Part shown: piece by piece, positions 32,266-53,299 of the stretch
How the letters are laid out: each line of letters starts with the position of its first letter
Numbering within the stretch: the first letter of the stretch is position 1
Virus record (IMG/VR): IMGVR_UViG_3300045988_131144
Location: 14,352-78,351 of that record
Origin: a virus
Length of the DNA: 64,000 bases
Direction: 5' to 3' (one strand)
The notes under the pieces: model-generated
The model's input: only the letters and a program-made list of their open reading frames with translations
The model's database searches: none
What the model was told of the DNA's origin: nothing
Position numbers and translations under genes: made by a program

Positions 32266-32294
32266 ATTATAATTTAAGGTTACCCAAATGTCAA
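32266..32294 (-). promoter_or_regulatory. consensus promoter TTGACA-N17-TATAAT for the RHH-int operon
   Basis: Minus strand reads TTGACA TTTGGGTAACCTTAAAT TATAAT; the -10 is flanked by direct repeats GGGTAACCT / GGGTGACCT. Confidence 0.6.
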
Positions 32295-38206: not shown

Positions 38207-38585
38207 TTTTCAAAACCTCCATATCATATCCGCTTCGGATAAACTCAAGTGTTTTCTGGTGGTGAACAGCGTTACCAAGCCGTTGATAGATAATCGCCAT
38301 ATCCTCTGGGGTGAACGACGTTCCGAGGAACGAATTGATACCCTGTCGGTGGTATTCATGTACCTCTCTGTTTCTTTTTTCGGTGTGATAGTGCATGCTC
38401 TTGTATGCGTCTCGTGACAGCCACTCTAACACCTTGGCTTTCATAGCTTCCTCCGACGCACAGTTATCAAGCCGGAAGTAGGAGTTTACGCGCGGATTGC
38501 GGTCAGCTACAAACTCCAACTGGACGTTTATCAGGGAATTAGGGAAAGCCCTTAACAGTCTTTGCACAACAGATAGGTCAATCAT
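38199..38585 (-). CDS. hypothetical protein
   Basis: 128-aa ORF. Confidence 0.5.
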   Translation of the reverse strand: MIDLSVVQRLLRAFPNSLINVQLEFVADRNPRVNSYFRLDNCASEEAMKAKVLEWLSRDAYKSMHYHTEKRNREVHEYHRQGINSFLGTSFTPEDMAIIYQRLGNAVHHQKTLEFIRSGYDMEVLKNV

Positions 38586-38953
38586 TTAGATGCTCCCTCC
38601 TTGTTAACCAACCAGTCACAGCGCGTAACTATATACCAGCAAGAGCCGTAGTCCTCTATGCGATCGCCGGTTCGCGTAAGACCATTGTCGTGCGCGACAG
38701 CAAGTATCGCTTGAAGCAGCGCCGCTTTCCGGTCGAAGTAATCTTTTGCCGCTGTGGGTATATTCCACGTTGGCAGGAAAATCACATACGGGATATCGCT
38801 CCAAAACGAACTGAGATCATATTCGACATCTTTGATATCCGGCAATGCCATCAGCTCCGCATGAAGTTTTTCCATCTGCTCCCCTATGCCAAAGGCTTTC
38901 ATCGTCTTTATATCACGTTCACAGAATCCCACTGTTGTCAGCTCCTTCCTCAT
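38582..38953 (-). CDS. hypothetical protein
   Basis: 123-aa ORF. Confidence 0.5.
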   Translation of the reverse strand: MRKELTTVGFCERDIKTMKAFGIGEQMEKLHAELMALPDIKDVEYDLSSFWSDIPYVIFLPTWNIPTAAKDYFDRKAALLQAILAVAHDNGLTRTGDRIEDYGSCWYIVTRCDWLVNKEGASK

Positions 38954-40905
38954 GTCGCAGCGCTCAAAAGCGGCTGGGTCAGTTGCACGGCCTCAATAAT
39001 ATATTTCGACGGATTGACCATCACTTTTTCGTACTCCTCCGCGCCCTGAAACTCGTCTATGACGGTCTTTTCCTCAGCAGACATATCTGAATAGTGCTTG
39101 CGCCCGTAGCTCGGTGGGAGCCAACTGCGCTCTCTGGCGGCATAGATATTCAGGCGGTCGATAAGCGGCGCGGCCTCCGGCTTAAACTTGATGTGACATG
39201 TGCCCTTTTTATAGAACTTCGCCGTGAACCATGTGAGGTCAACGACCGTCTCGCCCGCCGCGATAGCGTGCTTTACCCACGCGGAAACATTGCGCTTCTC
39301 TGTAGTCTCGCCTCGGTCGAGGTAATTCAGCGCTCGTTCCAGGTCACTCAGTTCTCCATAGACCGTATACGCGTTCAATTCCCTCTCGTTTTTCCAGCCG
39401 CTGGAACTGCAAAATCCGTTTATTGGGAGGATGACTTTCGTGCCGACCTTGTGGGCTTTATTCGTCGCCCAGCCGTTATAGTAGTGAATATTCTTCTGGC
39501 ACTCCGGGAACCATGAATACTGCGCGGAGAATTTTTCAAAGAGAGCGTCTATACTCTCCTTCACACCATCCACGAGCTGCGCGTTGAGGTCATAGTAGAC
39601 CTGCTGGAGGTTAAAGAGGTTGAAATCATAGCCGCAGAGCTTATCGACCATTGCGGTGTAGTCCTTCTGCATCTTCGAGGTCATACGGGATGTAAACTCC
39701 GGCTTGTTGAGCAGACCGCGCCAGTACTTCATGCGCAGGGCTTTCATGTACCGCTCTATACCAGACGTGCCAACAGTCTGGAACTCACTGCCGTTTATGT
39801 TGATGGATATAAGCGGCTTTATGTAGCTTTTAGATGCGTCCAAGTCGTCCATCATATAGGGCATAAGTGCGTTGTATTCTTCTATGAGCTTCCTGCCAAG
39901 CTGCGCTTCAAAGTCAAAGGACTGTATCATCTGCTCCGCCCAAGAGCCGTACACCATGGCATCGGGTTCTGGCTCGTTATTGTGCAGCTCTTCGGCCTGC
40001 GCTTTTTTGAGGTTTTCAAAGATAGTTGAGGTCTTGCGCTGCGCGGGAATATTCACATAGATTATGGCTGCTTCAACATCGGTTCTGCGCTGCGCGTGCT
40101 TGAATGCGTCACGGACAAACTCTATCTTTGCGCCGCTCTCCGCGAGTTTCTGCTTGAGAACTTTGCGGCGGTTGGTATACGGATTCCTTATCGTCTCGGC
40201 GTTGAGCAGACATACAATTTGACCGCCGTCAGCCTGAATCTCCAACGCTTTCAAAAGATGCTCGTCACCGTTTGAAAATGGCGGGTTCATTATGATGAGG
40301 TCATAGTGCTTATGCGAATGGAAAGTAAGGAAGTCGTCGCTTATGACTCTGTAGTTCTTCCCGCGCAGCAGGGCGATGAGGTTAGCATCATGCTCTATCA
40401 TATCCACGGAGTCCATATCAAAATCGCTTCCGTATCGGCGGCTTTTGTTGGCAAACTTTATGTACAGCTCGGCAAGATCACCTTTTCCCGCTGACGGCTC
40501 CAAGACTGTACAGATTTCGTCGGGCTCCTTTATATTTCCGAACATCTTTCCAGCAAGCGCGCTGGGTGTGGGGAAAAATTCAGCGTTCGGATCGGCAAGG
40601 TACGAAACGATGTCTGTACCGGTTTCGGGGACTTCTTTATATTTCTCGGCAATTAACTGTTTTGCCTCAAAGAGAGTGTTCGCATTCCCACAATAGCCGC
40701 CATCCACCAGACTAACGCCGTAATATATACCGCGCCTGCCGTAGTTATCACGGTACTGGTTTATCTCTCCAACTTTCCCGCGGGTCGTGTAGACCGCCCA
40801 ATGCAGCCTTCCGTTCGGCCACATCTCGCAGAAGTCACGATCATAGCCGCGAAGCTGCAAGCGCTGTTCAAAGTAAAAATGCAATGTGCTGTAATACTTC
40901 TTCAT
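38950..40905 (-). CDS. N6-adenine DNA methyltransferase (gamma-class, NPPF) with large C-terminal domain
   Basis: Motif I VLEPSAGKGDLA and motif IV IIMNPPFS; ATG at 40905 behind AGGGAGGA; no adjacent restriction endonuclease recognised. Confidence 0.75.
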   Translation of the reverse strand: MKKYYSTLHFYFEQRLQLRGYDRDFCEMWPNGRLHWAVYTTRGKVGEINQYRDNYGRRGIYYGVSLVDGGYCGNANTLFEAKQLIAEKYKEVPETGTDIVSYLADPNAEFFPTPSALAGKMFGNIKEPDEICTVLEPSAGKGDLAELYIKFANKSRRYGSDFDMDSVDMIEHDANLIALLRGKNYRVISDDFLTFHSHKHYDLIIMNPPFSNGDEHLLKALEIQADGGQIVCLLNAETIRNPYTNRRKVLKQKLAESGAKIEFVRDAFKHAQRRTDVEAAIIYVNIPAQRKTSTIFENLKKAQAEELHNNEPEPDAMVYGSWAEQMIQSFDFEAQLGRKLIEEYNALMPYMMDDLDASKSYIKPLISININGSEFQTVGTSGIERYMKALRMKYWRGLLNKPEFTSRMTSKMQKDYTAMVDKLCGYDFNLFNLQQVYYDLNAQLVDGVKESIDALFEKFSAQYSWFPECQKNIHYYNGWATNKAHKVGTKVILPINGFCSSSGWKNERELNAYTVYGELSDLERALNYLDRGETTEKRNVSAWVKHAIAAGETVVDLTWFTAKFYKKGTCHIKFKPEAAPLIDRLNIYAARERSWLPPSYGRKHYSDMSAEEKTVIDEFQGAEEYEKVMVNPSKYIIEAVQLTQPLLSAAT

Positions 40906-40933
40906 GTGTTCCTCCCTGTTTCTGTGTGGTTCC

Positions 40934-41638
40934 CTATATGCTTTTTCCAAACATGGCCGCAATTTTCTTCCTGCCCTCGACCGTCACGAGCGTCTGTGCG
41001 CCTGTTTTCTCGCCATTAACGTATTCCTTGAGGGTGAAGTAGCCTTTATTGGTCTCGGCGTAGGGCCTGAGCTGCTGTTTCTTATCCCTGTAAAGATAGC
41101 CCGCGGCGATGAGGTTTCGTATCATTTCGCGCTCCCCGATGTGCAGTTCTTTGGCGGTCTCTCGGAATGAAAGATCGTTCCCTCGGTCTATGAGCGCGTT
41201 GAAGTAACTGACCTTCGGCGCGTCTCTGCGGCTGTTCGCCAGCAAGCCCCGGAAGAGCTGCTTTGTGGCTTCGTCAGCGCCCGGAATGTAGGTGTTGATG
41301 AAAAGCTCGTCGTTAGCCACGTAGCCGCCGGTGCGTCTTATAGTCGGAATGATTTCATCAGCAACAAGCGCCTGAAACTTCTCGGCGGTTTCGTTCTTTG
41401 CTTTCATCGCGAGGCGGTAGAAGATGTTTTCGGGGATGTAATCACCCGTGGTACACTTCTGTTCCACACCCAAATCTGACAGATACCCGCGAACGCGCGT
41501 CCAGTTGACGACTTCATTTCCGCTGTCGGCTTTCTTCACAAATCCCAGCCCGCGTGCAACCGCTTCGAGGTCGAGGTATGCCGTGCCGTCTTTTTCGTAG
41601 CAGCTAACGCCGCTGATGTTCATAATTTCGTTTGACAT
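40934..41638 (-). CDS. phage antirepressor (KilAC/ANT-type C-terminal domain)
   Basis: N-terminal ...LDLEAVARGLGF...; C-terminal SFRETAKELHIGEREMIRNLIAAGYLYRDKK... Confidence 0.65.
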   Translation of the reverse strand: MSNEIMNISGVSCYEKDGTAYLDLEAVARGLGFVKKADSGNEVVNWTRVRGYLSDLGVEQKCTTGDYIPENIFYRLAMKAKNETAEKFQALVADEIIPTIRRTGGYVANDELFINTYIPGADEATKQLFRGLLANSRRDAPKVSYFNALIDRGNDLSFRETAKELHIGEREMIRNLIAAGYLYRDKKQQLRPYAETNKGYFTLKEYVNGEKTGAQTLVTVEGRKKIAAMFGKSI

Positions 41639-41676
41639 TTGCTATCTTCCTTTCTGATTCTTTGTAGTTCTTCTGA

Positions 41677-41711
41677 GGTGTTGGGATGGTAGCACCCGTG
41701 TCAAGCGCAAA
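41677..41711 (-). promoter_or_regulatory. conserved element copy A (GCGCTTGACACGGGTGCTACCATCCCAACACC)
   Basis: 34/35 identical to 58846-58880 and related to 59040-59071; ends 38 nt upstream of the antirepressor ATG. Confidence 0.5.
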
Positions 41712-41796
41712 ATCGGTGTTTCTCTCGGTTTCGATGTCAAATACGCAGATTTTTGTATTGTATTCATAATGCTTTGCCAATCTACGCGGCAAATTT

Positions 41797-41960
41797 TGTG
41801 CAGTTCTCCCCACGTAGTCGGGTAATTCTCTGTGGCTCTCCTCGACCTTGTGGGGTGATTCTGTACAGATCCCCCGACGTAGTGACCTAATGTTGTACAG
41901 CCCTCCCGGAGGACGTTTTGGGAACGTAGTGACCTGTTTCTGTGCAGTTCCCCTAACAAG
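41797..41960. repeat. iteron-like composite direct repeats
   Basis: Plus-strand TGTRCAG at 41797, 41862, 41894, 41941; ACGTAGTGACCT at 41877 and 41924, with partial ACGTAGTCG at 41812. Confidence 0.55.
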
Positions 41961-42096
41961 CTTTTGGCGGTGATATGGTGTAGAAATAGAGCAACTGAAC
42001 ATCCATATTAAATGTGGCAGCGGTGAAATCCCGCCAGTTGTCGAACTCGCCTTCGTGCAACTCGCCCTCACACAGCCATTCGGCATAAATCTTCAT
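41953..42096 (-). CDS. possible small protein (47 aa)
   Basis: Hand-translated MKIYAEWLCEGELHEGEFDNWRDFTAATFNMDVQLLYFYTISPPKAC; weak RBS. Confidence 0.3.
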   Translation of the reverse strand: MKIYAEWLCEGELHEGEFDNWRDFTAATFNMDVQLLYFYTISPPKAC

Positions 42097-42105
42097 CTCT
42101 GTGTC

Positions 42106-42528
42106 TTACATCTCCTTTATCAGTTTTATAAAGCCCTGCTGCTTGAGGTTCTTGAGCCAAATGTGTAGGAACTCGTCAAGGCTCACGCGCAGACGCTGAG
42201 AGTACATCATCTGGCCGTTAACTTCCTTGTAAACTTCGTCGTAGCTCCCGGTATAGTCATTGCGGAAAAGAACGGGTTCAATAGTCTGTTCGGTCTCATC
42301 GACCGCAAACTCGATCTCAGGATCAGCCATAAGATCGCCGTTCTGCTCGGAGTAATGCGCGATGTAGTACACGGGGCGACCTTTATAGTCCGAGAAGTAG
42401 AGGAACTCGGCGGCAAGGCGCGTGTACGGTTCATTCTCCACACTGATATGAAAGTCGTGTCGAGAAAGCGCCTCCAAGATGGGGCGCAAGTCCTGATAGT
42501 TCTGCTTTGCGTGTTTCAGTTCGGTCAT
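42106..42528 (-). CDS. hypothetical protein (resembles the DUF6908-type family of Firmicutes mobile elements)
   Basis: ATG at 42528 behind GGGAGGA; ...QNGDLMADPEIEF... motif recalled from that family. Confidence 0.45.
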   Translation of the reverse strand: MTELKHAKQNYQDLRPILEALSRHDFHISVENEPYTRLAAEFLYFSDYKGRPVYYIAHYSEQNGDLMADPEIEFAVDETEQTIEPVLFRNDYTGSYDEVYKEVNGQMMYSQRLRVSLDEFLHIWLKNLKQQGFIKLIKEM

Positions 42529-42552
42529 GTTCGTAAATCCTCCCAAGTATTT

Positions 42553-42680
42553 TGCGGGCGCGTGTTCACACAAACCCCCGCAGTTTTTCTATTGGCCGTG
42601 TTCAGGGGCGCGGAAACTTCCCAGTAAAATCCCGCGGGCGTGTTCAGCACCCCCAAGACTTCCGCGCGCCCTGTTCACAT
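42553..42680. repeat. four spaced (G/C)TGTTCA repeats in a GC-rich non-coding gap
   Basis: GTGTTCA at 42562, 42598, 42640 and CTGTTCA at 42671, with CGCGG/CCGCG stems around them. Confidence 0.45.
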
Positions 42681-42948
42681 TTCGGGACGCGGTCGCTCGC
42701 CTCTGCCCCGTTCGGTGATCCTGCCGGACACGTCCGGCGGCGGGTGCAATCTGTTTTCTTCGGGGAGGTGCACCAGCTCCCCACGGCCTTACATCAGCAC
42801 CCCGGCAGGCTGACCGCCGTTTATAGCGATGGGCGCGCGTCCTCGTATCTCTCGCCGGGTTTAATCCTGTTTTCTTGCCCATGAGCGCCCGCCATATAGG
42901 CGGCTGGACTTGCACCAGCGGCGGCGGATGCCGTCGGCCTTGCGGGCT

Positions 42949-43830
42949 TCACGCGGCGATTATGGCCGCGCGTATTTGCTCGATGATCTCATATATTTTA
43001 GTACTGCCGGTGCCGCTGTTGCGCTTGTAATAGCGCACAGAGTACCGCGGCGCACCCTCGATAATGGTAATGCTGCATTGTGCAAAGCTATTGAGGATCC
43101 AGCCGCGAGTGCGCAAGGGAATTTTCACGCCGTGCGCGTCGGCTATCTCTACCAATAAAGCGCCGTCTTTTATCAAACCGCCGCGGGTAAAAATCTCCTC
43201 GGCCTTCTTTATCTCTTGCCGGTGCTGCTCTTCCTGCTCTGCTCTTTCCTTTGCTTCCTGCTCTTCACGTTCACGGCGGGCGGCTTCTTCTCTCGCTTCT
43301 CCATCGGCGCGCAGTTTTGCGGACAGCTCCGCGCACTTGCCAAGCTCCCCGAGTACAGCCGCGCCGACGAAGTCGGCGAACGTGCCGCCGTTGTCGCGGG
43401 CGTCGGTGTAATTACGAACGCGAACGCGCAGACGATCCCGGATATAATCCGCTTGCCGTGCAGGGTCTGAGCCGTACCGAAGTATTACGGGTTCTTCCTG
43501 CGCTCGCAGCGCGTCCGTGTTTTCGGTTCTCCGCCAAACTCGCGCCCGTTCCTCCTGCGTGCCGTATAGTTCCACGCAAGCCGGGAAAAAGCCCAGAACA
43601 TCGGTAAATTTATAATCTGTCATCCGCAGCGGCACTAAATAGTTGTTGATCTCGACATAAAGAAAATACCTGTCGCGCTCATTGGCGGGGTATTGGTTTT
43701 TCTCTGTACATGTCCAAAGCTTGTACGACTCCGCGCCGTTGCTGACCTCGCGCACAAAATCCGCGCGGCAGTTTTTGCCCTCGCGGTTATACATGCCGTT
43801 AATAAAAAGGGGCTTTTTTAATGTGCTCAT
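42949..43830 (-). CDS. hypothetical protein with central Glu/Arg-rich coiled coil
   Basis: 293-aa ORF. Confidence 0.5.
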   Translation of the reverse strand: MSTLKKPLFINGMYNREGKNCRADFVREVSNGAESYKLWTCTEKNQYPANERDRYFLYVEINNYLVPLRMTDYKFTDVLGFFPACVELYGTQEERARVWRRTENTDALRAQEEPVILRYGSDPARQADYIRDRLRVRVRNYTDARDNGGTFADFVGAAVLGELGKCAELSAKLRADGEAREEAARREREEQEAKERAEQEEQHRQEIKKAEEIFTRGGLIKDGALLVEIADAHGVKIPLRTRGWILNSFAQCSITIIEGAPRYSVRYYKRNSGTGSTKIYEIIEQIRAAIIAA

Positions 43831-43927
43831 GTGGTAATACCTCCGTATTTTTTAGGCTCAAAGCCTGTAAAAACGCCTTGCAATCAAGACGCTTTTACAG
43901 ACTGCCGGGAAAAGCCCCGGCAAACTG

Positions 43928-44086
43928 TTAATAGAGATAGTACCAGACAATAAATTTTGATTCTTTGCCGTCTGCGCTGCTCCATGGGGTGTACCAGGCT
44001 TTCCGCCGCTGCTTGCGGCGCTGTTCAACGAAATTTTTTGCCTGCTCTTCCGTGTCGACAAAATGGAATGTTGATTGATGTAACAT
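43928..44086 (-). CDS. small hypothetical protein (52 aa)
   Basis: GAGGAGGA RBS; MLHQSTFHFVDTEEQAKNFVEQRRKQRRKAWYTPWSSADGKESKFIVWYYLY. Confidence 0.4.
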   Translation of the reverse strand: MLHQSTFHFVDTEEQAKNFVEQRRKQRRKAWYTPWSSADGKESKFIVWYYLY

Positions 44087-44099
44087 TGTCAAATCCTCC

Positions 44100-44453
44100 T
44101 CAAATAAAATACATAGTCCCGTCCAGCTCGACGGCGACGGCCTCTTGCTTTAGCTCGTCTCGCATGCGGACGGCAAAATTAACAACATCGTCCAGGTGTT
44201 CATCAAGTGCAGACTGCGCAGCATAGGCGAACACGGCGTTGTTATCTTCGGCAATAAGCCCGTGCGCCTCGCTCATCCAATAGCCGCGGACGGGCGTTGA
44301 CGTTGCGCCACCGAAGCACTCAGACAGCAGCGCGGCGGCCTCGGTCACGTATGCGCTTGTATCTCCTGCTGTGCTCGCGTCAACGGTTCCGGGAACGTAA
44401 ACCGTTATTTTGTGGCTGAGGCTGAAAGAGTTTTTCAAGATATTATTATTCAT
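44100..44453 (-). CDS. hypothetical protein (first gene of the leftward early operon)
   Basis: 117-aa ORF immediately downstream of the promoter at 44497-44525. Confidence 0.5.
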   Translation of the reverse strand: MNNNILKNSFSLSHKITVYVPGTVDASTAGDTSAYVTEAAALLSECFGGATSTPVRGYWMSEAHGLIAEDNNAVFAYAAQSALDEHLDDVVNFAVRMRDELKQEAVAVELDGTMYFI

Positions 44454-44496
44454 GTTCTGACCTCCTGCGCCCGTCTGGGCTTGTCTGACTGTATGT

Positions 44497-44525
44497 ATTA
44501 TACAGTACGGTTAACAGTATTGCAA
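44497..44525 (-). promoter_or_regulatory. promoter TTGCAA-N17-TATAAT with embedded GTTAAC operator half-site
   Basis: Minus strand reads TTGCAA TACTGTTAACCGTACTG TATAAT. Confidence 0.6.
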
Positions 44526-44574
44526 TATGTTATCTTGCACAAGGTTAACCGTACTTTTTTGTGCGAATTGTATA

Positions 44575-44603
44575 TTGTTAACCGTGCGCACATTGGTTAT
44601 AAT
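44575..44603 (+). promoter_or_regulatory. promoter TTGTTA-N17-TATAAT overlapping a GTTAACCG site
   Basis: TTGTTA ACCGTGCGCACATTGGT TATAAT, 20 nt upstream of the TTG start at 44624. Confidence 0.55.
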
Positions 44604-44623
44604 AAATATGGGGAGGTGATATT

Positions 44624-44857
44624 TTGCCCGTACCAAAAGGCGATAAAAAAAGCGATGCCCGCCGAGCCTCGCAAAATAAATATGATCTCAAAAATTTAGC
44701 CGTGCTTGCCTGCAAAGTGCGAAAACCCGAGGCCGAAGCGTTCCGGGCACTTTGCGAGGTGCACGGACTGACAGTCAACGCGGCCTTGTCTGACTATGTG
44801 CACAACAGTTTAGACGGGTGCGCGCTGCTGGAAAGTTTGACAACCGCGGAAAAATAA
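44624..44857 (+). CDS. RHH-like small DNA-binding protein (candidate switch regulator)
   Basis: TTG start behind GGGGAGGTGA; LAVLACKVRKPEAEAFRALCEVHGLTVNAALSDYV fits strand-helix-helix. Confidence 0.45.
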   Translation: MPVPKGDKKSDARRASQNKYDLKNLAVLACKVRKPEAEAFRALCEVHGLTVNAALSDYVHNSLDGCALLESLTTAEK

Positions 44858-44871
44858 AAGGGGGTACAATA

Positions 44872-45024
44872 ATGCCAACTGAAAAGGAAATGAAAGAAGC
44901 CCGGAAAGCTATAGCGTATGATCTGATAAACATCATAGACGAGAAGCCCGAGCAAGAAACGTATACCGCCGAAGAAATAAAGAAAATAATTAAAATCTAT
45001 GTCAGCACGGCAAATCAGGACTAA
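44872..45024 (+). CDS. small hypothetical protein (50 aa)
   Basis: ATG at 44872 behind AAGGGGG. Confidence 0.4.
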   Translation: MPTEKEMKEARKAIAYDLINIIDEKPEQETYTAEEIKKIIKIYVSTANQD

Positions 45025-45054
45025 AACCACTTAAGGATCATACAGAAAAACAAG

Positions 45055-45090
45055 AGAGCAGACCGAAAAACAACGGCCTGCTCTTTTTGT
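45055..45090 (+). terminator. rho-independent terminator
   Basis: AGAGCAGACCG aaaaacaa CGGCCTGCTCT followed by TTTTTGT. Confidence 0.55.
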
Positions 45091-45136
45091 ATGCTTTGTA
45101 CGGTTTACCGTGCTTATTTTTGTGCATTATTGCGGC

Positions 45137-45165
45137 TTGCAACACTGTTAACCGTACTGTATAAT
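45137..45165 (+). promoter_or_regulatory. promoter TTGCAA-N17-TATAAT, inverted copy of 44497-44525
   Basis: TTGCAA CACTGTTAACCGTACTG TATAAT. Confidence 0.6.
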
Positions 45166-45218
45166 AACACCCGTAAACAAGAATATCTGACAGATCAGAT
45201 ATTAACGGAGGTAAAAAA

Positions 45219-45374
45219 ATGAGAAAATATCGCGATTTAATAGAAATCGGGTTTGATACCCGCGAAGAGCTCGACCAATTTCTAAAGACGATCGAGGACG
45301 ACAACAACTTGACCGACCGGCAGTATTACAATCTACGTCACGAAGCTATCAACAAATTTTACGAGGAGGAGTAA
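45219..45374 (+). CDS. small hypothetical protein (51 aa)
   Basis: GGAGG RBS; MRKYRDLIEIGFDTREELDQFLKTIEDDNNLTDRQYYNLRHEAINKFYEEE. Confidence 0.4.
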   Translation: MRKYRDLIEIGFDTREELDQFLKTIEDDNNLTDRQYYNLRHEAINKFYEEE

Positions 45375-45377
45375 AAA

Positions 45378-46379
45378 ATGAAATATTTCGCACAGTGCAA
45401 AAACCTTGAGGAGCTCAAGAAGGAATTTAGACGGATGGCCATGCTTCACCACCCCGACCGCGGCGGCGACGTCGAGACCATGAAAGAGATCAATAACGAG
45501 TATGACATGATGTTTCCCGTGCTCAAGGCCAAGACAGCCGCGCAGAGCACCGAAACCGCCCAGAGCACCCGCAGCGAGTTTTACACCGCGAACGGCTGGA
45601 AGGGCGAACGGTACGAAGCCGGGCGCAGCCTCAAGGAGATAGCGCAGCTTGTACGCGCCTACATCAAGGAATTTTTCCCGGACTACCGTTTCAGCGTCCG
45701 CACGGCCTACGCTTCCATGTGCCAGGAACTTCACGTTGACATGAAAGAAGCTCCCGCGGAGATCTTCAAGACCTACGAGGAAATGACAGACGATGATATT
45801 TCCGAGTGTTGGCGGAAGGCCACCCGCAACAGTGTATGGACCCTCAACAGCTGGAACAAGGCCGAGGAGAAAGCCGAATTTGAAAGAATTTGGAGCAAGT
45901 ACGGCGCATTTTATAGATGCCTGACCGACAAGACCCGCGCGACGGTGAAGGCCGTTGACGAGTATGTGAACAGCTTCAATTATGACGATTGTGATAGCAT
46001 GATAGATTATTTCGACGTCAACTTTTATTACTTCGGATGCCTGCAGAGCCCCGGCGCCGTGAAAGTCGTCCCCCGCGCTCCAAGAGCCGAGAAGCGCCCC
46101 GCCAAGGCCGAGAGCGAAGCCCCGGCACCGGCACCGGCAGACAAGGCCGAGAAGCCCGAACAGATAGCCCCGGCGAAGCTCGCAGCGCTCCGCGTTGAGT
46201 TTAATACAGAGCATGACGGGATCGAGGTTTATTTTACTTCTAAGCCCTCTCAGGAAACGCGCGACGCGCTCAAGGCCGCGGGGTATCGTTGGCATAGCGT
46301 TAAAAAATGCTGGTTCGCCAAACGCACCGAGGCGCATTTACAGGCACTCAAAAGGATTGAGGACGAAGCCGCAGCGTAA
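45378..46379 (+). CDS. J-domain (DnaJ-like) protein
   Basis: N-terminal LKKEFRRMAMLHHPDRGGD with the HPD tripeptide; C-terminal GIEVYFTSKPSQETRDALKAAGYRWHSVKKCWFA motif. Confidence 0.75.
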   Translation: MKYFAQCKNLEELKKEFRRMAMLHHPDRGGDVETMKEINNEYDMMFPVLKAKTAAQSTETAQSTRSEFYTANGWKGERYEAGRSLKEIAQLVRAYIKEFFPDYRFSVRTAYASMCQELHVDMKEAPAEIFKTYEEMTDDDISECWRKATRNSVWTLNSWNKAEEKAEFERIWSKYGAFYRCLTDKTRATVKAVDEYVNSFNYDDCDSMIDYFDVNFYYFGCLQSPGAVKVVPRAPRAEKRPAKAESEAPAPAPADKAEKPEQIAPAKLAALRVEFNTEHDGIEVYFTSKPSQETRDALKAAGYRWHSVKKCWFAKRTEAHLQALKRIEDEAAA

Positions 46380-46417
46380 ACCCCGCCCCATACATCACAA
46401 TGCAATATAAAGCCCCT

Positions 46418-46447
46418 GAGACGGTCAGAAATGGCCGTCTTTTTTAT
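46418..46447 (+). terminator. rho-independent terminator
   Basis: AGACGG tcagaaatgg CCGTCT followed by TTTTTTATT. Confidence 0.6.
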
Positions 46448-46495
46448 TGCCTTTATGCAGATGTCGACCGGGGACACGATCCGCGCCCATGCCCT

Positions 46496-47045
46496 TTAAT
46501 ATATATTATTTATATTATATATATTATATCCAAGATGTAATATATACTGTGTGTATAGGTATATATTAATAACCTATGTAATATTGGAATATACAGCCGT
46601 TCCCGCCCAGAACGCCGAGCACCAGGAGCGCCCCCGCACAAGCTCACCAAATCCCGAACCAGACGCGAGGAACGCACCCAGAAGCCCACACAAGCGCCAT
46701 ATATCGCCCCCCCTATTCTTATAGACCATACCCCGCCCCAGCCGAGCACACGACGCACGACGGAGCTTTACACAGTCGTACAGCTCCCCACACCCTTTTA
46801 TATATAAATATCTAAGATATATATTATATATACTTGAGATTTATAATATATGTGTGTATATAATGTGTATATATATCTCTATAGGTATATATAAAATAAG
46901 CGCTGCCAAGAAGAGAGCGAACCGCACACAGAAAGAATATACACACACAGCCAAAGCAAGGAGCAGAGCAATACCACAAAGAAGAGAGAGAGCACCGCCA
47001 AGAGAAGCAAGGACACAGCAACACCCAACACAACATGTTGCTGAC
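46496..47045. repeat. two tandem modules, each a TA-repeat block followed by a T-poor CA/GA-rich block
   Basis: TA blocks at 46496-46595 and 46796-46898 share ...GATNTAATATATNNTGTGTGTATA...TAGGTATATAT...; T-poor blocks at 46596-46795 and 46899-47030. Confidence 0.55.
46834..46864 (+). promoter_or_regulatory. candidate promoter TTGAGA-N17/19-TATA(T/A)(A/T) in TA block 2
   Basis: TTGAGA at 46834; TATATA at 46857 or TATAAT at 46859. Confidence 0.3.
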
Positions 47046-47265
47046 TGTCGAACCATTTTAATACAGTTCTTCAGACGGGGGAGAGTCACCAACTCGCGCT
47101 TGTTCACGATTTCGGGAACATTTGCGAGATTTTGCGAGTTTTCAAAAGCTCCGCGAAAACCGACGTCAGCCCCGCCGAAGTCGTCCAGCTCTGGTCATTT
47201 GTGTAATAATGACCAGAGATAGCTCCCCGCCCCCACTTGCAAAACCGCACGGGGGCTTGATTTTT
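46870..47265 (+). ncRNA. candidate non-coding transcript of about 400 nt (hypothetical)
   Basis: Bounded by the candidate promoter and the terminator-like hairpin at 47229-47265. Contains a T-poor tract, CAACATGTTG palindrome, TTTGCGAG x2 and an 11-bp perfect hairpin at 47189-47218. Confidence 0.2.
47229..47265 (+). terminator. terminator-like hairpin
   Basis: GCCCCC (16-nt loop) GGGGGC followed by TTGATTTTT. Confidence 0.4.
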
Positions 47266-47688
47266 CAAGGTTTTCTGGTGGCAGTCCCATTCCCTCACTC
47301 ATTCACTTCCTCCTTCCAACCATCCCAGTTTCCATCCCCTCCCCCTACTTTAAAATCGAATTTAAGATTTCAAAAGGTTCTCCGGGCGAAACTGCTATTT
47401 ATAGGCCAAATCCCCCTGTTCAATTATAATTTGGTTGAAATTCAGATAATTATTCGCTCTGGTTTTGCGTTATTCGCGCCTGTCGTGCTCTCTGGCACGC
47501 TTTACGCGTCTCGGTGGTGTAGTTTCATTCCTAAATATTAAAAGCGTTTTTAAGGCCGTTCTCGTGCGTTTTAAGGCACATGATTTTCGAGCGGTTTTCA
47601 GCCCGCTCTCGGATAATAGTCGGGTCAGGCTCAGCAGAGTTTCGCCTGCCGGTCGAGTCTGGTCGAGATAGCGACCGGCTTGGAGCAT

Positions 47689-47720
47689 AAAAAAGAGGCC
47701 ACCTCCGTAGAGATGACCTC
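47689..47720 (-). terminator. rho-independent terminator of the SPFH operon
   Basis: Minus strand reads GAGGUCAUC ucuacg GAGGUGGCCUC (with G-U pairs) followed by UUUUUUAU. Confidence 0.55.
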
Positions 47721-47759
47721 ATCAATTTTTAATCTATAACTGCCGCTGGTTACGTAGAC

Positions 47760-48614
47760 TCACTTAGACACAACAACGCTATCCGCTCCGGTTACTGTTA
47801 CCCATCCATGCTTCAAGCGTGCTTCTGCCTCCGTCATCTGGATAAGCTCCGGGGTAATGGATTCTGAAATGATCCTGTTTGCGTCTGCCTGCGCCTGTGC
47901 CTCTATGACCTCGATATCCGCAGCGGTCTGAGCCTTAACCTTGTCTGTTTCTGCCTGCGCAAGCGCCGTAGACTTCTCAAGCTCTGCTATTTCCGCATCC
48001 TGCTTTGCCTGTTCCTTTGCCTTGATCTTTTCCTGCAAGCCTGTATCGAGCTCGACATCAATAATGAGTGCGCTGGTAATCTGCATGCCATATTCATCAG
48101 ACAATTTTTCATTGAGATACTCGGTGAGAGCTTTGTTGACCTCTGACTTCTTGTCACTGTAAATGTCCATGACGGAGAACTTCGGCGTGACCTCTTTCAC
48201 ATAGGCGATAATGCTGTTCTGTATGTACGTTTCGACGAGCTGCTCACCGTCCATGCCATTGAACCGAGTGTAAATGTCTATCACACGGTCTGCCTTGAAA
48301 CTGTAATTGACCGTCAGGTTGATTTTTACCATGCCGCCGTTAGCGGGAGCGTCGATAGACCAATCCGCGTGTTCTTTGGCGTTGTAATCTGCTGGGTCGT
48401 TTGAAAACACTATCTGCTGCTGTGACACTGGGAACTGCTTCACGCGCTCTGTGAACCCTATCCAGTGCCAGCCGGGAGATAGCGTTTCGTTCTTCACACC
48501 TTTTGAGGTGTAAACAACACCAACGTTGCCTACGCTCACACGCTCAAGACATGATATACATGAGACTGCAACTATCAAAGCCAAAACTACCGCTATAATT
48601 CTTGTTTTTCTCAT
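47760..48614 (-). CDS. SPFH/Band-7 (prohibitin-like) membrane protein
   Basis: N-terminal TM IIAVVLALIVAVSCISC; SPFH-like core (VGVVYTSKG...PGWHWIGFTERVKQFP...); C-terminal Ala/Glu/Gln coiled coil. Confidence 0.7.
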   Translation of the reverse strand: MRKTRIIAVVLALIVAVSCISCLERVSVGNVGVVYTSKGVKNETLSPGWHWIGFTERVKQFPVSQQQIVFSNDPADYNAKEHADWSIDAPANGGMVKINLTVNYSFKADRVIDIYTRFNGMDGEQLVETYIQNSIIAYVKEVTPKFSVMDIYSDKKSEVNKALTEYLNEKLSDEYGMQITSALIIDVELDTGLQEKIKAKEQAKQDAEIAELEKSTALAQAETDKVKAQTAADIEVIEAQAQADANRIISESITPELIQMTEAEARLKHGWVTVTGADSVVVSK

Positions 48615-48700
48615 TTTTTCTTATTTCCTCCTAAAATGTCAAAAATTATGATAAACGCAACCGCGAATATCGCTGAACCAACAAAAAGAATTTCTCTCAC
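48611..48700 (-). CDS. 29-aa hydrophobic micropeptide coupled to the SPFH gene
   Basis: GTG start; VREILFVGSAIFAVAFIIIFDILGGNKKK; its TGA overlaps the SPFH ATG. Confidence 0.35.
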   Translation of the reverse strand: MREILFVGSAIFAVAFIIIFDILGGNKKK

Positions 48701-48713
48701 TTGGTGCCCCCTG

Positions 48714-49568
48714 TTACTCGCTATAATCTAATTCACCGGCCAACACATCAGGAAGAATGGCGGTAGCAATTCGTCTCCCGCATCTTGGACAACGGAACGG
48801 ATCAAATCCCCACAAGCGTACCATGCCCTCCGATTCCTTCTTACACGACAACGATGCGAGTGTGAACCCACAGTGTTCGCATACCGGCTTGAACTTCATG
48901 GTCGTTGTATCTGACTCTTCGCCGAGGAAGGTTCCTTCAAGCAAATCCGTCGAGTGGTCAACCTCCGCAAACCGCACCAGTTCGGCCATTGCGTCGTAGG
49001 CTTCGCAAGAAGTATCGAAGAGCATACCTCCCATCACCCCGTTTGTGTCGTCTGTGCACAAGAGGCACTCGCCCCAACCATCGTGGTGGATGCCGTAGCT
49101 CAGACCGCTCCACGGGTCTGATTCGTATGCACAGCCGAGCTCACCATGATAGTTTCCCTCGTCATCATGCACGCCGATGTGCAGTTTCTCCTTGCCGCAG
49201 AACGGACACCTATACATCTTCGGCGTCCCGTTGAGAGCGCACACGATGCCGTAACAGTACACCTCGCCCTCCTCCATGATCTTGAACTCTGCGTGTGGCA
49301 GCTCGGTCTCGTATGCCCATGAGCAGTCTCTCCCTTCGGGGCACCACACTGCTTTGATGGGCAGGGAACGTCCTTCTCCACGCTTGAGCACACCGCCCTC
49401 GAAACAGTCGCACTCTCCGTCTATTGCGCCCCTCAACTCTGCGAGGTCGTCGGATGCGCCGAACACGACGAGGAAATCCAGATTTTCTGCGAGGATTGCT
49501 TCATCTTCTGTTATCTCATTACCATACTGCCGCCCATCAAGTTTCGCGGCAAATTCTTCAACTGTCAT
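48714..49568 (-). CDS. Cys-rich protein with an internal Lar-like zinc ribbon
   Basis: 284 aa; central MYRCPFCGKEKLHIG...; C-terminal CEHCG...RCPRCG. Confidence 0.5.
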   Translation of the reverse strand: MTVEEFAAKLDGRQYGNEITEDEAILAENLDFLVVFGASDDLAELRGAIDGECDCFEGGVLKRGEGRSLPIKAVWCPEGRDCSWAYETELPHAEFKIMEEGEVYCYGIVCALNGTPKMYRCPFCGKEKLHIGVHDDEGNYHGELGCAYESDPWSGLSYGIHHDGWGECLLCTDDTNGVMGGMLFDTSCEAYDAMAELVRFAEVDHSTDLLEGTFLGEESDTTTMKFKPVCEHCGFTLASLSCKKESEGMVRLWGFDPFRCPRCGRRIATAILPDVLAGELDYSE

Positions 49569-50209
49569 TTCTTGTCCACCTCGTCTATAAAGGTCGCCGC
49601 TTCATCTGCGACGTGCAGGAAGAACGCCAGCGGATTGCGTCGGAAAGTATCTCCTGCGGCTCTGGCTTCACCCTCCTGCCATGAACTCATGTGATAGCGG
49701 ATTGCGGTCGCTTCGTCTACTGACAGAGACATGAACTGCTGGAGAATGAAAACGCTCTTTTCTCCGTGGCCGAAAATGAACTTCTCGTCAATATCGTAAG
49801 CCTGTACTGTCTCCCAAATGAAATCTCCACCCGCGTCGTGCTTCACTGTCCACTTCTCCGCAGCGGCAACCTTTTCAGGATCGTATGTTTTCTGGTTGCG
49901 GCAGTTCGGCTTGTACATGTTGGCCTTGCAGAGATCATGGAAAAGCGCGACTATTGCGATGGTTTCTTCGGTATATGGGCAGCTATCGCCATATTCCTCG
50001 CGCAGAAATCTGCACAGTCTATCATACACATTCAAACTGTGTTCGCACAGTCCGCCAGGTACTGCGAGGTGATGGCGCGAACTCGCCGGGGCTTCAAAGA
50101 AGTCCGAGTGCAGGTCAAGCCACGCTATCAGACCGGTCGTGTTGTCGCGTGTGATGTTTTCCGTGACGATATTGACAAATTCTTCCTTGTTTCTCTCGAT
50201 GTTAATCAT
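49565..50209 (-). CDS. HD-domain phosphohydrolase
   Basis: SSRHHLAVPGGLCEHS ... ALFHDLCK ... GHGEKS metal-ligand pattern. Confidence 0.7.
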   Translation of the reverse strand: MINIERNKEEFVNIVTENITRDNTTGLIAWLDLHSDFFEAPASSRHHLAVPGGLCEHSLNVYDRLCRFLREEYGDSCPYTEETIAIVALFHDLCKANMYKPNCRNQKTYDPEKVAAAEKWTVKHDAGGDFIWETVQAYDIDEKFIFGHGEKSVFILQQFMSLSVDEATAIRYHMSSWQEGEARAAGDTFRRNPLAFFLHVADEAATFIDEVDKK

Positions 50210-50215
50210 TTTACT

Positions 50216-50428
50216 TTACTCCCTCTTCAGTACAGTTGCCGGTTTCGCATAGATAGTGTTCCTACCTGGCGTTATCCCAATTTCTCGTAATTCCTTGGCC
50301 GACAACGTGTGAGTGGATGTGAACACGATAGTCGCTGTCGTCCGATTCAGGCAAGCGACACATTCACATACGTGCTGACCGCTCGATTCATTTACCCTAA
50401 ACGGGCAGTTGCTGGCGTAGCACTCCAT
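50216..50428 (-). CDS. Cys-rich small protein
   Basis: 70-aa ORF. Confidence 0.45.
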   Translation of the reverse strand: MECYASNCPFRVNESSGQHVCECVACLNRTTATIVFTSTHTLSAKELREIGITPGRNTIYAKPATVLKRE

Positions 50429-50778
50429 TATTCAACCTCTTTCAACCAGAACTCACGGCGGCAATTATTGCAGTCTTTGGTGCCGCATTGCGAGCACTGG
50501 CCGTTTTCGTCTCTAAAGCTTGCGACGAAACGCCTAGGGCAAATATCCACAAATCCATCATCAGTCATCAGAACTTCCGGCCATTGTTTTAAAAATTCGC
50601 TCTGTCTGGTTTTTGGTGGGTGTGCCTCAAGCCACTTCTCAACGATGACAACCGCCTCTTTCGGGCTTTCCTGACACCATACTGCGCACGACGCATTTTT
50701 GCTAAGTGGGCAGCCATCGCACCGATAATAAGCCTTGCACATCTGATTCTTTGCTTTCAAAAATTCAACTGCGTCCAT
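50428..50778 (-). CDS. Cys-rich hypothetical protein
   Basis: 116-aa ORF, ATGA-type coupling. Confidence 0.5.
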   Translation of the reverse strand: MDAVEFLKAKNQMCKAYYRCDGCPLSKNASCAVWCQESPKEAVVIVEKWLEAHPPKTRQSEFLKQWPEVLMTDDGFVDICPRRFVASFRDENGQCSQCGTKDCNNCRREFWLKEVE

Positions 50779-51080
50779 TATTTACCCTCCATTTCCCGCC
50801 GCAGCGCTGCCCCCATCTTTACCATCTCTTCCAGCGTTGGAGCATGTTTGCACACGAAACTGCTATGGAAGAAACAGTTTGCGCACAAGACCCCTCCCAT
50901 AAACACCCAGCACCGATTACTCAACGCTCGGCAGTCCTCCTTGAGGTTGGCATTTTCTTCTTCCAGAGAGTCCACCTTTTCCCGATACTGCTTTTTCAGC
51001 TTGGACAGCTCCGCCTTGAGCCTTTTATTTTCCTCGGTCGCGTCCGAGGACATTTTGTTGCGAAATTCATTTAAGTCCAT
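50778..51080 (-). CDS. coiled-coil hypothetical protein
   Basis: ATG at 51080 (MDLNEFRNK...) behind AAAGGA. Confidence 0.45.
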   Translation of the reverse strand: MDLNEFRNKMSSDATEENKRLKAELSKLKKQYREKVDSLEEENANLKEDCRALSNRCWVFMGGVLCANCFFHSSFVCKHAPTLEEMVKMGAALRREMEGK

Positions 51081-51339
51081 TTGTTTTCCTTTCTCCGCAG
51101 CTGCAAAAGTCGTTCGGGAACACCACAGAACCTTTGCTGTCACATATCAAGCAGTAAGAACTGTAGCTACCTTCATAGCTGAATAGCTTCTTGCTGTATT
51201 TGCAGTCCTTGCAGCGGGTCACTTCCACGACATCAGCCGCAGGTACAGTACATATAGGGCAGGATTCTTTATCGCAGTGTTCATTGGGGCTATGGCAGCG
51301 ATTCTTGCAGTAATCTTCCTTGTCTATGCACTCAGTCAT
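51067..51339 (-). CDS. Cys-rich protein (RCKDC...FCSxG family A)
   Basis: ATG at 51339 behind GGAGGAG; VTRCKDCKYS...DFCSCGERK. Confidence 0.5.
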   Translation of the reverse strand: MTECIDKEDYCKNRCHSPNEHCDKESCPICTVPAADVVEVTRCKDCKYSKKLFSYEGSYSSYCLICDSKGSVVFPNDFCSCGERKTNGLK

Positions 51340-51424: not shown

Positions 51425-51429
51425 TGTTA

Positions 51430-51600: not shown

Positions 51601-51609
51601 TTTTACCTC

Positions 51610-52196: not shown

Positions 52197-52208
52197 TTCT
52201 GTTCCCCG

Positions 52209-53282: not shown

Positions 53283-53299
53283 CGCGTTCTCACCTCCGG

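Follow-up and report, generated by a model that had tools for sequence, protein, structure and literature searches.

The DNA analysed here, called the window throughout, is a 64-kb stretch that omits ~14.5 kb of a roughly 78-kb human-gut phage genome. It contains a compact plus-strand island in which a gene for a 77-aa protein (44624-44857, plus strand; TTG start with GGAGGTG 7 nt upstream, product pI 8.5) is flanked by two outward-facing predicted promoters of the form TTGCAA-N17-TATAAT. PL (44497-44525, minus strand) points leftward into a 117-aa gene matching phrog_3543 and then into a long minus-strand block, and PR (45137-45165, plus strand) points rightward. The sequence-only reading had described this pair as identical 30-bp modules inverted about the 77-aa gene; the inversion and the flanking arrangement stand, but the modules are 29 nt long and agree at 28 of 29 positions. 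The inverted repeat around them reaches 47 nt at 83% identity (44496-44542 and 45120-45166). A third promoter proposed in the same reading, P3 (44575-44603, plus strand; TTGTTA-N17-TATAAT), was borne out by the sequence and by promoter scans as the gene's own promoter, and PL, PR and P3 are 3 of only ~11 sites in the whole window that scored at least 10/12 in the scan. The resulting transcription unit is short, comprising P3, the 77-aa gene, 0-2 small cargo ORFs and an intrinsic terminator (45050-45090, plus strand; -18.8 kcal/mol, z = -4.4) that closes the island. In the PR leader, a conserved hairpin with a 9-bp stem (45182-45203, plus strand) lies immediately 5' of the ribosome-binding site; an Rfam search of 44000-48000 matched no RNA family.

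Set into these promoters is a cluster of candidate operators centred on GTTAACCGT. The cluster is real: five 16-bp sites containing GTT(A/T)ACCGT(A/G)C fall within 650 bp, and none occurs elsewhere in the 64 kb. O1 (44505-44520, GTACGGTTAACAGTAT) occupies the PL spacer and touches the -35 element, and O2 (44539-44554, ACAAGGTTAACCGTAC) separates the -35 element of PL from that of P3, with centre-to-centre distances of 34 bp from O1 and 33 bp from O3. O3 (44572-44587, ATATTGTTAACCGTGC), the least symmetric of the sites (4/8), covers the -35 element of P3. Beyond the intrinsic terminator, O4 (45098-45113, GTACGGTTTACCGTGC) is found 44 bp centre-to-centre upstream of O5 (45142-45157, ACACTGTTAACCGTAC), which occupies the PR spacer. 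A search with GGTTAACCGTAC allowing up to 2 mismatches returned 8 matches in 64 kb against 2.36 expected, 7 of them within 44505-45157, a clustering with a Poisson probability of ~1e-15.

The sites had been read as a 16-bp palindromic operator family, of which the 16-bp family held up while the palindromy proved only partial, with 4-6 of 8 positions symmetric. The perfect palindrome GTACGGTTAACCGTAC is absent from the entire window, and the site at 45098-45113, which had been credited with a single mismatch, departs from the ideal at two positions. What is constant among O1-O5 is the asymmetric GTT(A/T)ACCGT(A/G)C, and the weaker partner half reads NYAYKG. O4 was flagged as terminator-like; as a general explanation, RNA hairpins or terminators were rejected because O1, O3 and O5 are non-transcribed promoter DNA.

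The 77-aa protein is an RHH protein belonging to an unnamed family of phages and mobile elements. The family has more than 1000 unnamed proteins, one member bears the name 'CopG-like protein [Caudoviricetes sp.]', and an exhaustive HMMER search provided 161 representative relatives. The earlier description of the protein as RHH-like was confirmed by family profile matches, by Pfam matches of family members and by an alignment-based AlphaFold2 model. Searched against the PDB, the family profile had only RHH proteins at the top of the list (AvtR, 6.1e-4; PutA RHH, 0.02; Arc, 0.025), followed by the further RHH proteins DinJ (0.15), ParG (0.18) and Mnt (0.87), suggesting a similarity to established RHH proteins that is weak but consistent. 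Members of the family match RHH_1 (3.4e-6), RHH_10, DUF6290, ParD, NikA-like and RepB-RCR_reg models; the 77-aa protein alone gave no match in single-sequence searches of Pfam, PHROGs and NCBIfam. Annotated phage and plasmid collections contained no DNA-level match to the locus and no plasmid match, and the closest protein match in the annotated collections was one unannotated fecal phage record at 35% identity. A search of species-representative genomes yielded no relatives of the RHH protein.

The AlphaFold2 model built from a 63-sequence alignment (pLDDT 85.8) was preferred to a single-sequence model (pLDDT 56), which was discarded. It has an N-terminal helix (residues 11-24) followed by an extended-helix-helix arrangement, with residues 25-33 extended and helices at 34-46 and 51-76; the monomer lacks a called beta-strand, which is expected when the partner chain is missing. 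The RHH turn is G48-L49-T50 (G-x-T), and G48, T50, N52 and A53 are invariant or almost so among relatives. The top Foldseek matches were all RHH proteins (DinJ, rmsd 0.5 A over 40 columns; a viral ParG-like protein, 1.3e-3; an AmrZ-like protein, 3.5e-3), and against the PDB no match reached E <= 0.001, small domains giving weak statistics.

The operator motif travels with this family. Five homologues that are ~42-56% identical to the 77-aa protein over the core (L010, L011, L093, L119 and L120) have 2-3 full sites or 3-5 half-motif matches in the ~130 bp upstream of their own gene, and in these diverged homologues one site falls within the spacer of a leftward TTGCAA/TTGACA-N16/17-TATAAT promoter. 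In a longer subfamily, 4-5 direct repeats of TTAACCGTAT or TTAATCGTAT occur upstream, and a perfect leftward TTGACA-N17-TATAAT promoter again has a site in its spacer. A homologue with a divergent beta-strand, L126, has three copies of a different palindrome, TCTACTTAATAAGTAGA. Across 11 non-window clusters the half-motif occurs at 6.35 per kb upstream of the family genes and 0.60 per kb elsewhere (Fisher p ~9e-14), a test for which the half-motif was chosen with the data already in view and in which many loci are phylogenetically related. The motif is wholly absent from 3 of the 11 diverged clusters (L118, L157 and L159/160).

Since the motif and its layout recur upstream of diverged homologues, O1-O5 are very probably operators of the 77-aa protein. 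It is most likely that this protein binds O1-O5 and represses PL, PR and its own promoter, a prediction drawn from the retention of the motif by diverged homologues while the strand-divergent L126 has another palindrome. The other candidate binders, the products of a 50-aa and a 51-aa ORF in the island and just beyond PR, appear unlikely because relatives with the full set of sites either lack these ORFs or have others in their place.

A different function for the repeats was also considered, in which they would form a ParG/omega-like centromere, serve CopG-like copy control of an extrachromosomal prophage, or be operators for a host factor or for phage HTH proteins. CopG, omega and ParG are small RHH repressors that act on arrays of short direct or inverted repeats in promoter regions; the family of the 77-aa protein gives weak profile matches to ParG and to RepB-RCR_reg (PF10723, CopG-like), and its arrays of 3-5 repeats spaced at ~33 bp look like centromeres or iterons. 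A search for an integrated form of the phage found none, all contigs being <=80 kb, which fits an extrachromosomal prophage; the exact 318-aa recombinase always adjoins the endolysin on contigs of <=80 kb, and the terminase-like protein has relatives on 72-75 kb MAG contigs and on contigs that are short, none of them clearly integrated. However, neither here nor in homologous loci does the RHH gene have a ParA/Walker ATPase or Rep gene as a neighbour, its predicted control here extends to no rep or par genes, and the 77-aa query itself falls below the Pfam threshold. In the window and in the diverged homologues alike, the sites are positioned precisely in promoter spacers or over a -35 element, which points to transcriptional repression, and the motif stays with the RHH gene while the neighbouring genes and the CI allele change. 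We consider these other functions highly improbable.

The genes placed under PL, PR and P3 by this arrangement are varied. An acidic 50-aa ORF (44872-45024, plus strand) behind the RHH gene marks a variable cargo slot that holds 0, 1 or 2 small ORFs in close relatives; the ORF itself is an indel and is missing from L001-L006, which retain all the sites. The slot proximal to PR is also variable, with an acidic 51-aa ORF here (45219-45374, plus strand) and either nothing or ORFs of 48, 55 or 64 aa in relatives, and it is followed by a conserved PR cargo gene for a 333-aa protein with J-domain, LPD29 and DUF5710 matches (45378-46379, plus strand). Downstream of PL, the leftward block (32348-44453, minus strand) begins with the phrog_3543 gene and ends at a terminator near 32310-32340. 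It encodes a DUF6908 protein, an Ant-type protein with Bro-N and KilAC domains (40934-41638; ANT 5.8e-21, phrog_130 1e-36), a methyltransferase (MTase) with DUF4942, a Lar-like protein, an HNH protein, an 81-aa HTH protein and an SSB, with a tyrosine recombinase at its far end. Most of the cargo genes have no annotation and the window yielded no known acr gene, and the Lar-like protein, the MTase with DUF4942, DUF6908 and LPD29 are hints of possible anti-defence or establishment functions. Among homologous loci, the first leftward gene of L010 encodes ArdC-N and MPTase-PolyVal domains, and an AcrIC5 gene lies near the RHH homologue of L117. The idea that 31-47 kb is a separate inserted element was not supported: the lysin-recombinase gap and the 46.4-47.8 kb region share no repeat of at least 11 nt, and no empty-site relative was found for the supposed insertion.

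The sequence-only reading had suggested that this locus is a lysis-lysogeny or early-gene switch built on an RHH protein in place of a CI/Cro pair. In that version the RHH protein would be the lysis-lysogeny repressor, PL and PR would be early lytic promoters, and occupancy of the operators would define the prophage state. The topology is indeed similar to lambda immunity (PL-OL / cI / OR-PR), with a repressor gene between outward early promoters that have repeated operators, and predicted negative autoregulation of the repressor's own promoter at the site closest to it. The tyrosine recombinase at the far end of the leftward block and the occurrence of a family member, L162, in a small integrated element between host genes would also suit a master switch. 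So would the lack of an S24-type repressor in the window, an earlier observation that proved correct. Against such a replacement, the window does itself encode an 81-aa CI/Cro-type HTH protein (34882-35127).

The larger genomic context argues otherwise and shows that a 64-kb window of a 78-kb genome can conceal the true lysogeny switch. All five of the examined contigs that encode the window's exact 125-aa protein (62815-63192) have a canonical module 3-8 kb downstream, which places it 3-8 kb past the window end. The module consists of a 401-428-aa integrase, a Cro/C1-type HTH repressor, a divergent Cro-like HTH gene and an Ant gene, and then replication genes. The same module is present in IMG/VR relatives, and one 78.4-kb contig that has it encodes two of the window's exact proteins; it was thus seen beyond the window sequence, in contigs that encode exact proteins of the window and in all the related genomes that were examined. 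DnaB, the initiator and SSB come after this module and not after PL or PR, and family searches and relatives gave no Cro-like DNA-binding gene, and hence no Cro-like antagonist, behind either promoter; the first genes reached from PL (117 aa) and from PR (51 aa) belong to no DNA-binding family. The canonical immunity region of those contigs contains no RHH motif or sites, which, together with the position of the module past the window end, argues that the RHH circuit is a secondary, accessory control circuit apart from the integrase/CI/Cro module. Compared with lambda, the repressor here has an RHH fold and not an HTH with an S24 peptidase domain, there is neither a Cro antagonist nor a shared bistable operator, and the CI/Cro-type pair of the phage is elsewhere. 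It is therefore very unlikely that the RHH protein replaces CI/Cro as the lysis-lysogeny switch; the alternative wording, an early-gene switch, is plausible.

The Ant-type gene in the PL block suggested a narrower role, in which the circuit would mainly silence Ant in the lysogen, and once the RHH protein was lost, Ant would be free to inactivate the Cro/C1-type repressor, inducing the prophage as in the immI region of P22. In that region two RHH proteins, Mnt and Arc, regulate ant from divergent promoters (PMC11016777). The two systems share an RHH repressor at divergent promoters with an operator inside the promoter, a location in a secondary circuit beside a primary CI/Cro-type immunity region, and an Ant-type gene in the controlled operon, although the antirepressor role is putative here. 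They differ in that the family has no significant sequence relationship to Arc or Mnt (profile E of 0.025 and 0.87), that there is a single RHH gene, transcribed as a unit of its own, and no Arc-like or other RHH gene in first place behind PL, that two near-identical outward promoters would be controlled instead of one, and that the host is a Gram-positive gut Clostridia-type bacterium. Ant is also distal in the operon, ~3 kb and at least 5 genes downstream of PL and not adjoining it. The canonical module already has its own Ant gene, immediately following the Cro-like gene, the PR cargo has no relation to Ant, and diverged homologues control leftward operons that lack Ant, such as the ArdC-like operon of L010. 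Moreover, Bro-N/KilAC proteins are not always antirepressors. A circuit devoted mainly to guarding against Ant seems rather unlikely, though the coexistence of a primary CI-type repressor in the genome is in keeping with it.

Secondary control circuits with RHH proteins are already known from P22 immI, Reg576 and Aca14, and the one described here appears to resemble them. Reg576, from the Bacillus pumilus plasmid p576, is an autoregulated RHH repressor of several strong promoters of accessory and anti-restriction genes, for which a burst of expression upon DNA entry and subsequent shut-off has been proposed (PMC6294495). At the level of sequence architecture our locus shares with it a predicted autoregulated RHH repressor and candidate operators at several strong accessory-gene promoters, and in the homologous locus L010 the controlled genes begin with one of ArdC type. 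Reg576, however, belongs to a conjugative plasmid and not a phage, and its operators consist of two directly repeated TTATCCC heptamers and each bind two dimers, whereas the sites here are 16-bp imperfect palindromes around GTTAAC; a PDB profile search of the family returned no chain named Reg576 at E <= 10. Aca14 is an anti-CRISPR-associated regulator of the RHH type with a helical extension that represses its own and the neighbouring anti-defence operon via inverted repeats in the promoter (bioRxiv 10.64898/2026.07.27.740549). By description, it has in common with our locus hypervariable small ORFs beside a strong promoter. It lies inside the acr operon and its AT-rich repeat covers the -10 element, whereas here the RHH gene is served by a separate promoter and terminator and the sites occupy promoter spacers. 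Unlike Aca-type regulators, the RHH gene is divergent from PL and upstream of PR, not within an operon that it would repress.

The best explanation of the locus, to which we give a probability of roughly 60%, is that the 77-aa protein is an RHH repressor of PL, PR and P3 in a secondary circuit that produces a burst of expression followed by silence. The protein would bind sites centred on GTT(A/T)ACCGT(A/G)C, and because the outward sigma-70 consensus promoters PL and PR have O1 and O5, respectively, in the gap between their -35 and -10 elements, the bound protein is predicted to exclude RNA polymerase there. At O3, over the -35 element of P3, binding would lead to negative autoregulation of the RHH gene. 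O2 and O4, which are offset by approximately three to four helical turns, probably aid cooperative binding; spacings of 33, 34 and 44 bp do not correspond to whole numbers of helical turns, and cooperativity is therefore uncertain. When the genome enters a cell the repressor is absent, so PL and PR would fire at full strength, producing the hypervariable small acidic ORFs, the J-domain/polyvalent-domain protein, Ant, DNA methyltransferases, the Lar-like protein and other accessory genes. As the RHH protein builds up, both promoters would be shut, and in a lysogen its autoregulated synthesis would keep the PL and PR operons, Ant included, silent. We infer that accessory, possibly anti-defence, genes are probably expressed in a burst as the DNA enters and are silenced afterwards.

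It is possible, though doubtful, that the RHH family and its GTTAACCGT-type operators form a widespread 'governor' of immediate-early anti-defence and establishment operons, independent of CI/Cro, in gut Clostridia phages and small integrated elements. If so, an operator within the spacer of a consensus promoter might be a beacon for new anti-defence genes among the hypervariable promoter-proximal ORFs, and derepression might also be coupled to prophage induction via the Ant of the PL block. The perfect TACGGTTAACCGTA occurs at 103 places in IMG/VR and has a family gene nearby at only one of them (L093), so this 14-mer is mostly a chance occurrence and a poor beacon. The locus offers a compact and testable RHH-based secondary circuit in an uncultured human-gut phage. 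If the burst-then-silence reading holds, searching gut Clostridia phages for its operator could lead to their early accessory and anti-defence genes, with the variable ORF slots next to the RHH gene and behind PR as priority candidates.

Reading of positions 44200-45800 revealed two outward-facing promoters, PL (TTGCAA-TACTGTTAACCGTACTG-TATAAT, minus strand, 44525..44497) and PR (TTGCAA-CACTGTTAACCGTACTG-TATAAT, plus strand, 45137-45165), whose modules measure 29 nt each, rather than the 30 bp previously given, differ at a single base, and are spanned by an inverted repeat reaching 47 nt at 83%. A third promoter, P3 (TTGTTA-N17-TATAAT, 44575-44603), lies upstream of the 77-aa ORF (44624-44857), which has a TTG start and a GGAGGTG ribosome-binding site. 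All three scored 10/12 in a consensus scan, a quality found only ~11 times in the 64 kb window; the inverted pair with a third promoter around the 77-aa gene, as proposed from the sequence, was thus recovered both by reading and by scanning. A strong intrinsic terminator (45050-45090, -18.8 kcal/mol, z = -4.4) closes the island ahead of site O4, making the 77-aa gene its own short transcription unit. The PR leader carries, immediately 5' of the ribosome-binding site, a perfect 9-bp-stem hairpin, AATATCTGA-CAGA-TCAGATATT (45182-45203; -8.5 kcal/mol, z = -3.5), that is kept in relatives and could serve in mRNA stabilisation, in translation control, or as a site for another regulator.

Matches to GGTTAACCGTAC with ≤2 mismatches numbered 8 in the window, against 2.36 expected, and seven of them fell inside 44505-45157, a cluster with a Poisson probability of ~1e-15. 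The five candidate operators, each of 16 bp, are O1 (44505-44520), which takes up the PL spacer; O2 (44539-44554), in the stretch that separates the PL and P3 -35 elements; O3 (44572-44587), over the -35 of P3; O4 (45098-45113), whose centre is 44 bp upstream of that of O5; and O5 (45142-45157), which fills the PR spacer. The clustered five-site family described in the sequence-only reading therefore stands, with corrections: the ideal palindrome GTACGGTTAACCGTAC occurs nowhere in the window, the sites are symmetric at only 4-6 of 8 positions (O3 least, at 4/8), what they share is the asymmetric GTT(A/T)ACCGT(A/G)C, and O4, reported as one mismatch from the ideal, differs at two positions.

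The 77-aa protein alone had no match in Pfam, PHROGs or NCBIfam, and a word-indexed search with it found just four close relatives; an exhaustive HMMER search returned 161 cluster representatives at E ≤ 1e-3. With a profile built from 63 of these (A2), the best-scoring PDB entries were ribbon-helix-helix (RHH) proteins (AvtR, 6e-4; the PutA RHH domain, 0.02; Arc, 0.025; then DinJ, ParG and Mnt), and single family members match RHH_1, RHH_10, DUF6290, ParD, NikA-like and RepB-RCR_reg. A large-database profile search gave 1051 proteins at E ≤ 1e-5, many carrying PF10723 and one titled "CopG-like protein [Caudoviricetes sp.]". The alignment-based AlphaFold2 model (pLDDT 85.8) has a basic, conserved N-terminal helix (11-24), an extended segment (25-33), a helix (34-46), a G48-x-T50 turn and a final helix (51-76), and its best Foldseek matches are again RHH proteins (DinJ, rmsd 0.5 Å over 40 columns; viral ParG-like and AmrZ-like models). 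The RHH assignment made earlier is thus confirmed, for a family that has no name. Longer members (P0059/P0215-type, 126-128 aa) have weak RelB/YlcI-type matches in the C-terminal half (residues ~73-106), suggestive of a second RHH-like repeat of the kind found in AvtR, a tandem-RHH protein. The family is also found in integrated elements not of phage size, as in locus L162 (ERZ28594552 scaffold_401, 119 kb), where an element of ~10 kb (7700-18381) has a 126-aa member at one end, adjoining host genes (Mfd/TRCF, rotamase, cation ATPase), and a sigma factor, an HTH_17 protein and an integrase towards the other.

All five sites and all three promoters are kept in close relatives (L001-L009, L127-L131; 94-99% identical), which are too similar to be informative on whether the sites belong to the RHH protein; diverged homologues are informative. 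The locus at ~55% identity (L010) has ATACGGTTAACCGTAT, and ATAACGTTAACAGTAT at the gene's own -35; those at ~48-50% (L011-13) have three ACGGTTTACCGT-type sites, and L093 also has three sites. At 44% (L119) a leftward promoter, TTGCAA-AACACGGTTAACAGTGC-TATATT, holds a site in its spacer and two further sites occur, a layout repeated at 43% (L120) with a site centre 1 bp longer. In a subfamily of 150-219 aa, TTAACCGTAT or TTAATCGTAT recurs as 4-5 direct repeats, and the leftward promoter, a perfect TTGACA-N17-TATAAT, holds a site in its spacer; L126, which differs in the beta-strand region (DRVSVAMPRG), has three copies of another palindrome, TCTACTTAATAAGTAGA. Across 11 non-window clusters, whose loci are not independent, half-motif density in the upstream 380 bp was 6.35 per kb, versus 0.60 per kb elsewhere (Fisher p ~9e-14, for a pattern fixed post hoc on data already inspected); three clusters (L118, L157, L159/160) had no motif. 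The products of the 50-aa and 51-aa ORFs are unlikely to be the site binders, as these ORFs are missing or swapped in relatives that retain the sites. That the RHH protein would bind O1-O5-type sites is well supported by this comparison of loci. Near another homologue, 43% identical, an AcrIC5-family gene is followed by a 49-aa NikA-like RHH gene (L117, 2047-2589), a pair that looks like an acr gene with an RHH-type regulator.

With O1 and O5 occupying the 17-bp PL and PR spacers, respectively, and O3 on the -35 of P3, bound RHH protein would exclude RNA polymerase and shut all three promoters, P3 thereby being negatively autoregulated. If least symmetry means weakest binding, O3 would be the weakest site, and PL and PR would be shut ahead of P3. 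O2 and O4 are separated from neighbouring sites by 33-34 and 44 bp, and spacings in homologous loci are ~31-36 bp, which hints at cooperative assembly of the kind seen in other RHH systems, albeit with imperfect phasing. We put the probability of this mechanism, an RHH repressor acting at PL, PR and P3, at about 0.8.

The block under PL runs for ~12 kb on the minus strand to a terminator near 32.3 kb; among its products are a phrog_3543 protein, a DUF6908 protein, an Ant-type protein (Bro-N + KilAC), a methyltransferase of 670 aa that carries DUF4942, a restriction-alleviation protein resembling Lar, an HNH protein and an SSB. It also encodes an 81-aa Cro/CI-type HTH protein (34882-35127; HTH_3, and Phage_CI_repr at 1.6e-4, just above cutoff) absent from the earlier description. 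PR leads into a small acidic ORF that is variable and then a conserved gene whose product matches J-domain, LPD29 and DUF5710; in L010 the first controlled gene is ArdC-N/MPTase-PolyVal. Judged by annotation, these putative cargo genes look like the "establishment" or anti-defence genes that other mobile elements carry. Two slots (44872-45024 and 45219-45374) are hypervariable among phages >94% identical (L001-L009, L128-L130): the one after the RHH gene holds zero, one (50 aa) or two (50 + 59 aa) small acidic ORFs, and the one between PR and the J-domain gene holds no ORF or one of 48, 51, 55 or 64 aa.

A minus-strand pair (31093-32340) consists of a second small RHH-like gene (64 aa, 32042-32236; RHH_9, E 0.0034) overlapping the start of a 318-aa tyrosine recombinase with a catalytic-domain match only; it is preceded by a terminator and by a perfect TTGACA-N17-TATAAT promoter (32294..32266) whose -10 is flanked by the direct repeat GGGTAACCT / GGGTGACCT. 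Some relatives have a pRha protein and a 104-aa gene in place of the 64-aa gene.

It had been suggested that the RHH protein replaces a CI/Cro pair in a lysis-lysogeny switch. The window is 64 kb of a ~78-kb genome (relatives from many samples have assemblies of 76.0-79.9 kb), and the missing 14.5 kb was reconstructed from IMG/VR contig 3300045988_119953, whose flanks match the window ends at 97-98%. It encodes a 428-aa tyrosine integrase (SAM-like, central and catalytic domains), which makes the 318-aa enzyme a second recombinase of the genome; a membrane HTH protein; a 190-aa Cro/C1-type repressor (HTH_26, 1.9e-14) divergent from a 75-aa Cro-like protein (HTH_3, 1.7e-15); and Ant (Bro-N + KilAC), a DUF3799 nuclease, SSB, a replication initiator and DnaB. 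The integrase/Cro-C1/Cro-like module lies 3-8 kb downstream in each of the five examined contigs that encode a protein identical to the window's 125-aa one (62815-63192); the repressor differs between these contigs as alleles do, which is typical of immunity regions, and one of them (ERZ918929, 78,425 bp) also has the window's exact 318-aa recombinase. No RHH sites occur in or around the module, and no Cro-like gene follows PL or PR. These observations indicate an ordinary temperate layout, in which the RHH circuit is a second, independent one; a role for it as the lysis-lysogeny switch, at least the primary one, is not supported. The Cro/C1-type repressor (116, 184, 187, 188 or 190 aa) and Cro-like genes vary among genomes otherwise 94-98% identical, as seen in the gap region of relatives (merged L173+L202, 16.8-17.7 kb; L255-L259), a classic pattern of immunity-region mosaicism; the RHH operators are constant across the same genomes.

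The RHH circuit is placed in the large accessory arm that separates the lysis genes from the attachment-site end. Within this arm, 47760-63192 has many DNA-modification genes (N6_N4 MTase, MT-A70, dCMP deaminase, 770-aa C5 methylase), an SPFH protein, an HD protein, a phage sigma factor (59853-60371) and, per the annotation of relatives, a radical-SAM protein. The ~1.3 kb at 46400-47760 lacks a convincing ORF and any Rfam match, and has very AT-rich TA-repeat blocks (GC 0.15-0.20; ~46.50-46.60 and ~46.80-46.90 kb) either side of a GC-rich segment (0.57-0.66). As contigs end 0.4-5 kb from the RHH locus in three independent ~79-kb assemblies, this stretch may be a genome end, an origin, or a mere assembly break point.

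In function the circuit resembles P22 immI, a secondary immunity region where ant is regulated by the RHH proteins Mnt and Arc (PMC11016777); Reg576 (plasmid p576), an RHH repressor under its own control that acts on four establishment-gene promoters, with a published model of an expression burst on entry and then shut-off (PMC6294495); and Aca14, an RHH regulator of its own operon and a neighbouring anti-defence operon (bioRxiv 10.64898/2026.07.27.740549). By sequence, the 77-aa protein belongs to neither the Arc/Mnt nor the Reg576 family, and unlike in Aca-type loci the regulator here has its own promoter and terminator. In topology the circuit mimics lambda's immunity region, except that the fold is RHH and there is no Cro. 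The circuit is of an already known sort, with an unnamed RHH family and a conserved operator. Its biological role, to which we give roughly even odds, would be that of an autoregulated repressor gating two accessory early operons, allowing a burst of expression upon entry followed by silence, probably in the prophage state as well.
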